From Rhina ancylostomus (taxonomy: Eukaryota), in assembly GCA_030265395.1 (NCBI GenBank), contig JARFYF010000118.1, positions 17,837,070 through 17,901,069 on the forward strand: a stretch of DNA of 64,000 bases, read 5' to 3'. This document shows, in pieces, positions 9,121-10,130 of this stretch; within the stretch, counting starts at the first letter, position 1, and each line of letters opens with the position of its first letter. The translations under genes and the position numbers were made by a program. The notes below the pieces were generated by a model. It did not search any database. It was given only the letters and a program-made list of their open reading frames with translations, and had not been told where the DNA came from.

Positions 9121-10130
9121 TGTTGCACCGATGTCTTAAATTGTTTAGCATGCTTTGAGGAGAGCGTTCTTGAAAAGAAAATGTAGATTGTCCTTAACGA
9201 TGATGCGAAGAGATGTTTAATAATCTCCCAAAGGACAAATATCTTAGTATTGCCTAGACAACCTGTGAGGGGCAAAGTAAACTGAGAGCTCGCCTCTCAG
9301 GTACGAAGCTGCTGCTACGTTTTATCTTGTACCGGGCAGTTTTGCGTTCGTTGAGGATGGCTTATGCACTCTTTGAATCATCTTATTTCTTTTTCGTGTC
9401 GTGCTTCTGATATTGCACGTTGGGTGTTTTATCAGTGCGATTTATTTCCGTAAATAGCCGGTTCTGCGAGATTCACAGCACCGTCGATATTTAGGCTTGG
9501 AGCGATACTCTCTTCTCTTCGTGTATGCAATGTGGGAATTTTACATTGACTTTTAATTTGGTCCGGGAAGGAGTTGTTGTTGTCGCTGTTGCGAGGTTTT
9601 GGGGAGGTGGGGGGAATAAAATGTCACCCAAGTAATTGCAATAATTCTGTACGTCGCGAAAAATGATCATGGTTAAATCTTTGCGATGCATCGACCTGCG
9701 TGCGTTTCATCATTGTGCATGGATCGGATTTGTTGCATATTTTATTATTTGCCCCGCACTTAGAGCTATGTGTGTGTGTGTTTTGCTTTCCTCTCTTTTG
9801 GGAATTGCTAGTCTTGGCGTACATGGGGTCTGGTCGAGCCGCGGCTGCAAGACGTTCCCCATCGACTCGTCACGTACAAAATGCAAGTGTGACCGACTCT
9901 CCAGGTTCGCCATTTTGGCTCAGCTCTCTCCAGATTCGGTAAGTCCTTTCTATTTATTTATTTTTTTTAAAAAAGAAACAATGTTGCATTAATCTCTGTG
10001 AAATCAGTGTGAAATGCACATGCACGTCCCTTGCAACTGGATGCAACAAAGGAGGGACGTAGCAGCTGCCACTGGAGGCTGACGGTTCCTTTTTATTGAA
10101 ATATACATGTACATCTTACTGACGCATCTA
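9121..10130 (+). promoter_or_regulatory. Intragenic CpG-rich island over the GPS exon; candidate internal promoter
   Basis: Hand count about 44 CpG in 9121-9940 versus about 5 in 11000-12000; sequence is not recognisably repetitive. Confidence 0.65.
9812..9938 (+). CDS. ADGRB1: ADGRB1/BAI1 coding exon: C-terminal half of GPS motif and Stachel ([43 protein letters not shown])
   Basis: Acceptor ...gaattgctag|T at 9811/9812, donor TCG|gtaagt at 9938/9939; 127 bp, phase 2 to 0. W-S-x-x-G-C...[16 protein letters not shown] matches the BAI1 GPS (human, from memory: [35 protein letters not shown]). Confidence 0.95.

Follow-up and report, generated by a model that had tools for sequence, protein, structure and literature searches.

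Human and mouse ADGRB1 (BAI1) carry an alternative promoter ahead of the GPS exon, as an earlier note on the present locus had stated and as the published account bears out (Parag et al., PMC11711277). In human, the internal starts lie about 1000 bp upstream of exon 18, and the best-supported short transcripts of mouse (142 reads, 642 aa) and human (22 reads, 644 aa) consist of a new exon in intron 17, exon 18, and an ATG in exon 19; the shortest human form starts with MEKAT in exon 19, and a human short form with a 60-residue N terminus keeps the GPS (PMC11711277). Read coverage in both species changes in a step at exon 18. The short BAI1 isoforms of both species have no known function, persist in the common exon-2 knockout, and on blots can pass for the cleaved fragment (PMC11711277 and the review PMC12860997). 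The catalytic HLS is replaced by RLS in ADGRB1 and ADGRB3, which are poor at self-cleavage in HEK293 cells (PMC13062082). The terms CpG, conserved, zebrafish, and evolution are absent from the main text of PMC11711277, and a literature search with most subscription papers outside its scope returned no report of an ADGRB1 internal promoter outside mammals. This kind of promoter is already known from human and mouse, and its occurrence in an evolutionarily distant lineage is likely new.

The window, by which we mean the whole 64,000-nucleotide stretch of Rhina ancylostomus DNA that was analysed, contains the following exons of the gene.

9812-9938, + strand: ADGRB1 exon 18 (127 nt), the GPS exon, with the RLS motif
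29340-29443, + strand: ADGRB1 exon 19, with AG/GT ends
38184-38286, + strand: ADGRB1 exon 20, with AG/GT ends
45233-45383, + strand: ADGRB1 exon 21, with AG/GT ends
53624-53693, + strand: ADGRB1 exon 22, with AG/GT ends

By the comparison of its exons, which are nearer to named ADGRB1 than to ADGRB3 or B2, the gene is an ADGRB1 orthologue, and the GPS exon belongs to the gene that the earlier note had assigned it to. Over 43 residues, the exon 18 product matches Mobula ADGRB1 completely, with 98% identity to the Pristis and Amblyraja proteins and 81-84% to those of sharks, and 26/26 of its matches are B1 or an unnamed shark model; identities for exon 19 are 88-100% to seven B1 proteins vs 50-57% to three B3 proteins, and for exon 21, 90-98% to B1 vs 82-84% to B3. 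Because the human form with the 60-residue N terminus keeps the GPS, exon 18 of the published human gene (PMC11711277) would correspond to the GPS exon of the window. The residue that follows the GPS serine (9906-9908, exon 18) is the one that varies in the tethered agonist: batoids and elephant shark carry Arg, sharks Ser, and bony vertebrates in most sequences Thr.

Intron 18 also holds, on the same strand, a lone intact SLC6 transporter exon of 163 nt (23989-24151, + strand, B0AT2-like, AG/GT ends), 98% identical to a Pristis protein and located 100 bp ahead of a 100-N gap at a local GC of 0.43-0.51. No further exon of the SLC6 gene aligns in the window, ADGRB1 and the SLC6 gene are listed on separate Pristis scaffolds (20 Mb and 102 Mb), and the exon would shift the frame if spliced into ADGRB1; it is likely a misjoined or duplicated piece. 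LINE-like reverse transcriptase remnants, which we take by resemblance to be CR1-type, are found at 2117-2645, 7830-8280, and 49365-49697.

One interval stands apart in composition.

9093-10206, no strand: CpG-rich segment with an observed/expected ratio (O/E) of about 1 and a GC content of about 43%, called as a maximal-scoring segment and lying mostly in ADGRB1 intron 17

The 820 bp from 9121 to 9940 hold exactly the 44 CpGs previously counted there, at an O/E of 1.09 and 44.6% GC, where 7.7 are expected (Poisson p 2.6e-19), and 9121-10130 holds 48. Outside 9001-10300 the window has an O/E of 0.19 and 7.1 CpG/kb; the strong contrast described earlier stands, and the background figure given with it, about 5 per kb nearby, was too low. 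Sliding-window computation of CpG O/E placed 48 CpGs in the top 1-kb window of the 64-kb window vs 16 in the runner-up. The GC content of the segment is about 5 points over background while its CpG O/E is 5-fold over background, and TpG/CpA O/E is 1.12/1.08 inside vs 1.30/1.35 outside. ADGRB1 exons 19-22, taken with 500 bp of flank each, have a CpG O/E of 0.15-0.34, in agreement with the claim that the other four exons have no island. The CpGs are spread as 34 in the final 727 nt of intron 17, 11 in exon 18, and 8 in the next 283 nt, a distribution at odds with the claim that the island is centred on the intron/GPS-exon boundary. Against the Gardiner-Garden thresholds, the O/E is 1.09 over 820 bp (threshold >0.6 over at least 200 bp) and the GC content of 44.6% falls short (threshold at least 50%; 0.48 in the best 200-bp window, at a scan step of 100 bp). 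A second, weaker CpG cluster at 21802-21963 (score 16.9) presumably represents a young SINE-type repeat, which it resembles.

Neither a self-BLAST match within the window nor a tandem repeat was found in 8300-10510, as expected of the non-repeat sequence described before. DNA runs X17 and X13 of relatives cross the stretch in a single flat-depth contig, and X8 in two long contigs and five short side pieces; a repeat origin of the CpG-rich segment is ruled out by the repeat-free interval together with the single-contig coverage. Exon 18 has 11 CpGs in 127 nt (four at codon positions 2-3, four across codons, and three in Arg CGN) vs 9 in 428 nt for exons 19-22 (Fisher p 0.0015). Codon constraint is ruled out as the cause, because synonymous codons could avoid all 11.

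Contigs of 4 of the 24 runs listed were compared over 8300-10510, namely three DNA runs and X24, a run of organism G whose RNA label is a guess. None of the runs listed is recorded as RNA, which says nothing about expression in the species of the window. The comparison gave the following features.

8439-10221 (organism G), 8478-10221 (organism F), and 8371-10333 (organism C), no strand: block aligning at about 90% identity to the relatives' DNA, in one contig each for G and F and several for C
8778-9084, + strand: extra exon in distal intron 17, as far as an X24 contig covers it, its 3' end set by the donor GT at 9085-9086
9085-9811, + strand: intron spliced out in an X24 contig (727 nt, GT-AG, 34 CpG)

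At the 3' edge of the CpG-rich segment, organisms G and F have 216 other letters instead of 10222-10427 (206 bp). The four X24 contigs comprise 8778-9080 (306 nt, depth 7.4), an unspliced piece covering 9055-9563 (depth 4.9), a 58-nt junction (depth 19.7), and exon 18 with 755 further letters (depth 159). The joint runs from 9080 to 9810 with two letters between, which places the splice at 9084|9812, bounded by GT (9085) and AG (9810-9811) on the + strand, and the spliced joint is deeper than the unspliced path (19.7 vs 4.9). It occurs in 0/3 DNA runs, where the stretch is crossed unspliced, which indicates that X24 holds spliced RNA. In organism G, which is not the species of the window, the intron-17 exon is joined to exon 18 in the sense direction, as seen in contigs of one run of this one relative. 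The contig start at 9810 implies a second incoming path into exon 18, probably from exon 17. X24 contigs give no cover at 8300-8777, at 9632-9779, or past exon 18, and include no exon 17-18 contig; holes between contigs prove nothing. The intron-17 exon is CpG-poor (4 CpG, O/E 0.31), has zero differences in X24 across 9055-9080, and ends 9 bp ahead of the CpG-rich segment; the likely start region is thus upstream of the island and not on it. The earlier proposal of an internal promoter on the island gains a spliced distal intron-17 exon and loses its exact position.

Taken together, the CpG-rich segment and the intron-17 exon probably represent, in a batoid, the internal promoter that ADGRB1 has in mammals. 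Transcripts would start at about 8780-9010 with the intron-17 exon as first exon, and would be spliced from 9084 into exon 18 by the junction seen in the organism G contig. The segment would stay unmethylated as part of the internal promoter, and the island would be the downstream part of the promoter's unmethylated domain. Upstream ATGs may be passed by leaky scanning or reinitiation, with translation then starting at the exon-19 ATG to give a predicted receptor that lacks the adhesion domains, the GAIN domain, and the tethered agonist. Homology with the mammalian intron-17 promoter is the origin we would propose. Since the RLS-bearing ADGRB1 and B3 cleave poorly, such a promoter would make by transcription the CTF-like receptor that other adhesion GPCRs make by self-cleavage.

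The 5' extent of the spliced piece bears on this reading through one short motif.

9010-9013, + strand: CAGT, acceptor-like and initiator-like, preceded by an 85-nt AG-free zone of 70% pyrimidine; 6/1980 YAG sites in the window score as well

The spliced piece could be a 72-nt internal exon (9013-9084) and the island an enhancer or other unmethylated element rather than a promoter, an explanation that we consider unlikely. Fed from exon 17, such an exon would meet a stop at its second codon and act as a poison exon or yield a secreted ectodomain; were the input instead a short exon lying further upstream, the piece would make up the second exon of a leader. The CAG at 9010-9012 strongly resembles an acceptor, G and F carry changes at 8974 and 8976 that create a CTGAT which we take to be branch-point-like, the in-frame TGA at 9017 fits a poison exon, and the depths add up for a 72-nt exon over a background of 4.3, near the unspliced 4.9. 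The upstream X24 contig, however, continues through 9012 without a break, joint, or loose end, and no splice from exon 17 into it is listed; such a link ought to interrupt the contig, provided that the assembler kept the branch. Conservation is ordinary (23 differences in 303 nt of the X24 contig), and a 72-nt exon does not by itself account for an island that starts at the donor. The letters at 9010-9013 equally fit an initiator, BBCABW being what we presume to be its consensus.

The intron-17 exon is quite probably a first exon rather than an internal one. The upstream X24 contig starts at 8778, which is 1034 bp before exon 18, without a loose end, while organism G DNA continues upstream, which hints weakly at a start region, contigs by nature showing no 5' end. 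The mean depth of that contig is too low for all spliced molecules to extend much beyond about 9000, and in most of them the start or upstream joint likely falls no more than about 70-120 nt from the donor. In organisms G and F, a TATA-like match at 8817 carries changes, and the motif scan found neither a GC box, nor CACGTG, nor a nearby CCAAT. Scanned without a chance control for motifs in what we take to be their usual form, the sequence has CRE half-sites, one NRF1-like match, and one TCGCGA match. Rfam returned two weak matches only, both far below gathering scores, and the intron fold (z -0.34) is not unusually stable.

The coding outcome was predicted from the reading frames of the leader, which include one in-frame upstream ORF.

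9053-9064, + strand: upstream ORF of 3 codons in the main frame, in strong context, with its stop at 9062

In-frame stops stand at 8807, 8819, 9017, and 9062 in the intron-17 exon, and because of those at 9017 and 9062 no N-terminal extension would come from it. The first long frame would therefore start at the exon-19 ATG (29343; A at -3 and G at +4, a strong context), the predicted start of the short isoform and counterpart of human MEKAT. A leader from 8778 contains six upstream ATGs; exon 18 contributes two that are out of frame, at 9823 and 9881, and the one at 9823 (weaker context) opens a 43-codon ORF overlapping the exon-19 ATG. The predicted product would have an N terminus of 5-6 residues and would lack a signal peptide, adhesion domains, GAIN, and Stachel. 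A BAI1 construct of such kind still reaches the membrane or signals, according to work cited in other papers. For BAI3, deletion of the ectodomain raises reporter signalling yet blocks neuronal function (PMC13322242), so the action of a short form could differ from that of the full-length receptor.

Common descent with the mammalian promoter would rest on position and architecture, not on aligned DNA; DNA conservation was compared among close relatives (about 90% identity), with tetrapod and shark DNA outside the comparison. At the protein level, in sets that are biased to short proteins and hold many non-independent isoforms per species, a Met in the GPS-TM1 linker was found in 50/53 ADGRB1 with an intact linker vs 11/75 control adhesion GPCRs; in 166 B1-type sequences it is at the exon-19 place in 146, two or three residues earlier in 15, and missing in 5, and it is the start of 52/108 short B1-type proteins among the matches listed (120 of 590). 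Short models that start at the exon-19 Met or two residues earlier come, among the matches listed, from sharks, teleosts, frogs, reptiles, birds, and marsupials, and all listed isoforms of the 'B1-like' gene are short in the three sharks checked. Such database models offer weak support, as split gene models, which the short models of the three sharks look like, would give the same picture. Squamate and Xenopus ADGRB1 models (P0086, P0097, P0101, P0102, P0108, and P0203) are without the exon-19 Met and start two residues earlier, at the end of exon 18, possibly a compensatory shift of the short-isoform start.

Among cluster representatives (20 of 21 parsed), turtle B1, wrasse B3, sturgeon B2, and two hagfish genes have the linker Met, and a lamprey model begins with it; a second lamprey gene, one teleost model, and an unnamed protein lack it. 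B3 likewise has a Met before TM1, at which 11/12 short B3 matches start. The linker Met could be kept for protein reasons. A tentative and rather doubtful extension is that the second promoter and pre-TM1 start codon predate the ADGRB1/2/3 duplications, the vertebrate BAI genes having had two promoters from the start and having made a receptor without ectodomain or Stachel by transcription, which would have enabled the loss of efficient self-cleavage in B1 and B3.

A true internal promoter could also have arisen independently in batoids, which we hold to be improbable. Adhesion GPCRs often have promoters immediately ahead of the GPS or 7TM exons, with CTF-type transcripts reported for 66.7% of 18 mouse receptors and almost half of the human ones (PMC6667449 and PMC11039983, respectively), so convergence is possible, and no alignment of tetrapod promoter DNA to the ray stretch was obtained. 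Against this, the intron, acceptor, and start codon are the same as in mammals and the distance is similar, the short models start at the exon-19 Met or two residues earlier from sharks to marsupials, and a further internal promoter exists in mouse Adgrb3.

The homologous-promoter reading would have the island unmethylated. In the elephant shark, gene bodies are hypermethylated and the start sites of expressed genes hypomethylated (PMC5437953), so CpG retention within a gene points to a protected element, and non-methylated islands of zebrafish have high CpG O/E at background GC (PMC3583005). The segment at 9093-10206 is likely such a non-methylated island, and its composition and a small substitution test suggest germline hypomethylation. 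Among 40/245 differences (8808-9344, each in at least three runs), transitions were found at 1/26 CpG positions vs 12/198 of the remaining C/G positions (P 0.003 when set against a 5-fold excess); these differences do not reach into the part of the island where CpGs are densest. Exon 18 differs at 3/129 positions in X24, so at least 8/11 of its CpGs are kept. Over the whole stretch, changes from window to relatives were C>T+G>A vs T>C+A>G at 68 vs 36 (G), 68 vs 36 (F), and 41 vs 21 (C), and the implied CpG rate in the three DNA runs is 2.6- to 13-fold, varying with the assumed background; CpG loss in the relatives is possible, and CpG retention there is partly borne out by these comparisons. 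That the segment is a lineage-specific gain of G/C and CpG (e.g. by biased gene conversion) or the remnant of an insertion, in either case with no regulatory role, would suit the C>T/G>A excess toward all three relatives and the apparently window-specific CpGs at 8943 and 9304, but is very improbable for a single-copy segment that is alignable across relatives, adjoins a spliced exon, has the small GC excess noted above, and retains synonymous exon CpGs.

Should promoter, splice, and start codon in the ray prove to be those of mammals, the isoform would date back to before cartilaginous and bony fishes parted and would have been retained since. This would favour a selected function over mammalian transcriptional noise, and would point to isoform-specific knockouts and to a look at B2 and B3.

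Compared with the human and mouse ADGRB1 promoter, the ray locus would share the layout of a distal intron-17 exon leading to exon 18, and it has the exon-19 ATG. Its GC content is about 43%, whereas a mouse alternative exon is given as 89% GC, and the ray exon offers no in-frame ATG, so it would yield no counterpart of the 699/700-aa form. Marks of the mammalian promoter are H3K4me3, H3K27ac, and ATAC peaks, reporter activity, and a 70-77 kDa protein, whereas the ray element is known from its sequence and a relative's contigs. The paralogue Adgrb3 (Bai3) of mouse likewise has an in-gene promoter parting the 7TM from the ectodomain (PMC6667449, PMC13197933, and PMC13062082). The non-methylated islands of cold-blooded vertebrates (Long et al., PMC3583005) were defined experimentally (Bio-CAP) in seven species, no cartilaginous fish among them, whereas the ray segment is defined by composition; the two have in common a high O/E, a near-background GC content, and that classical rules miss them.
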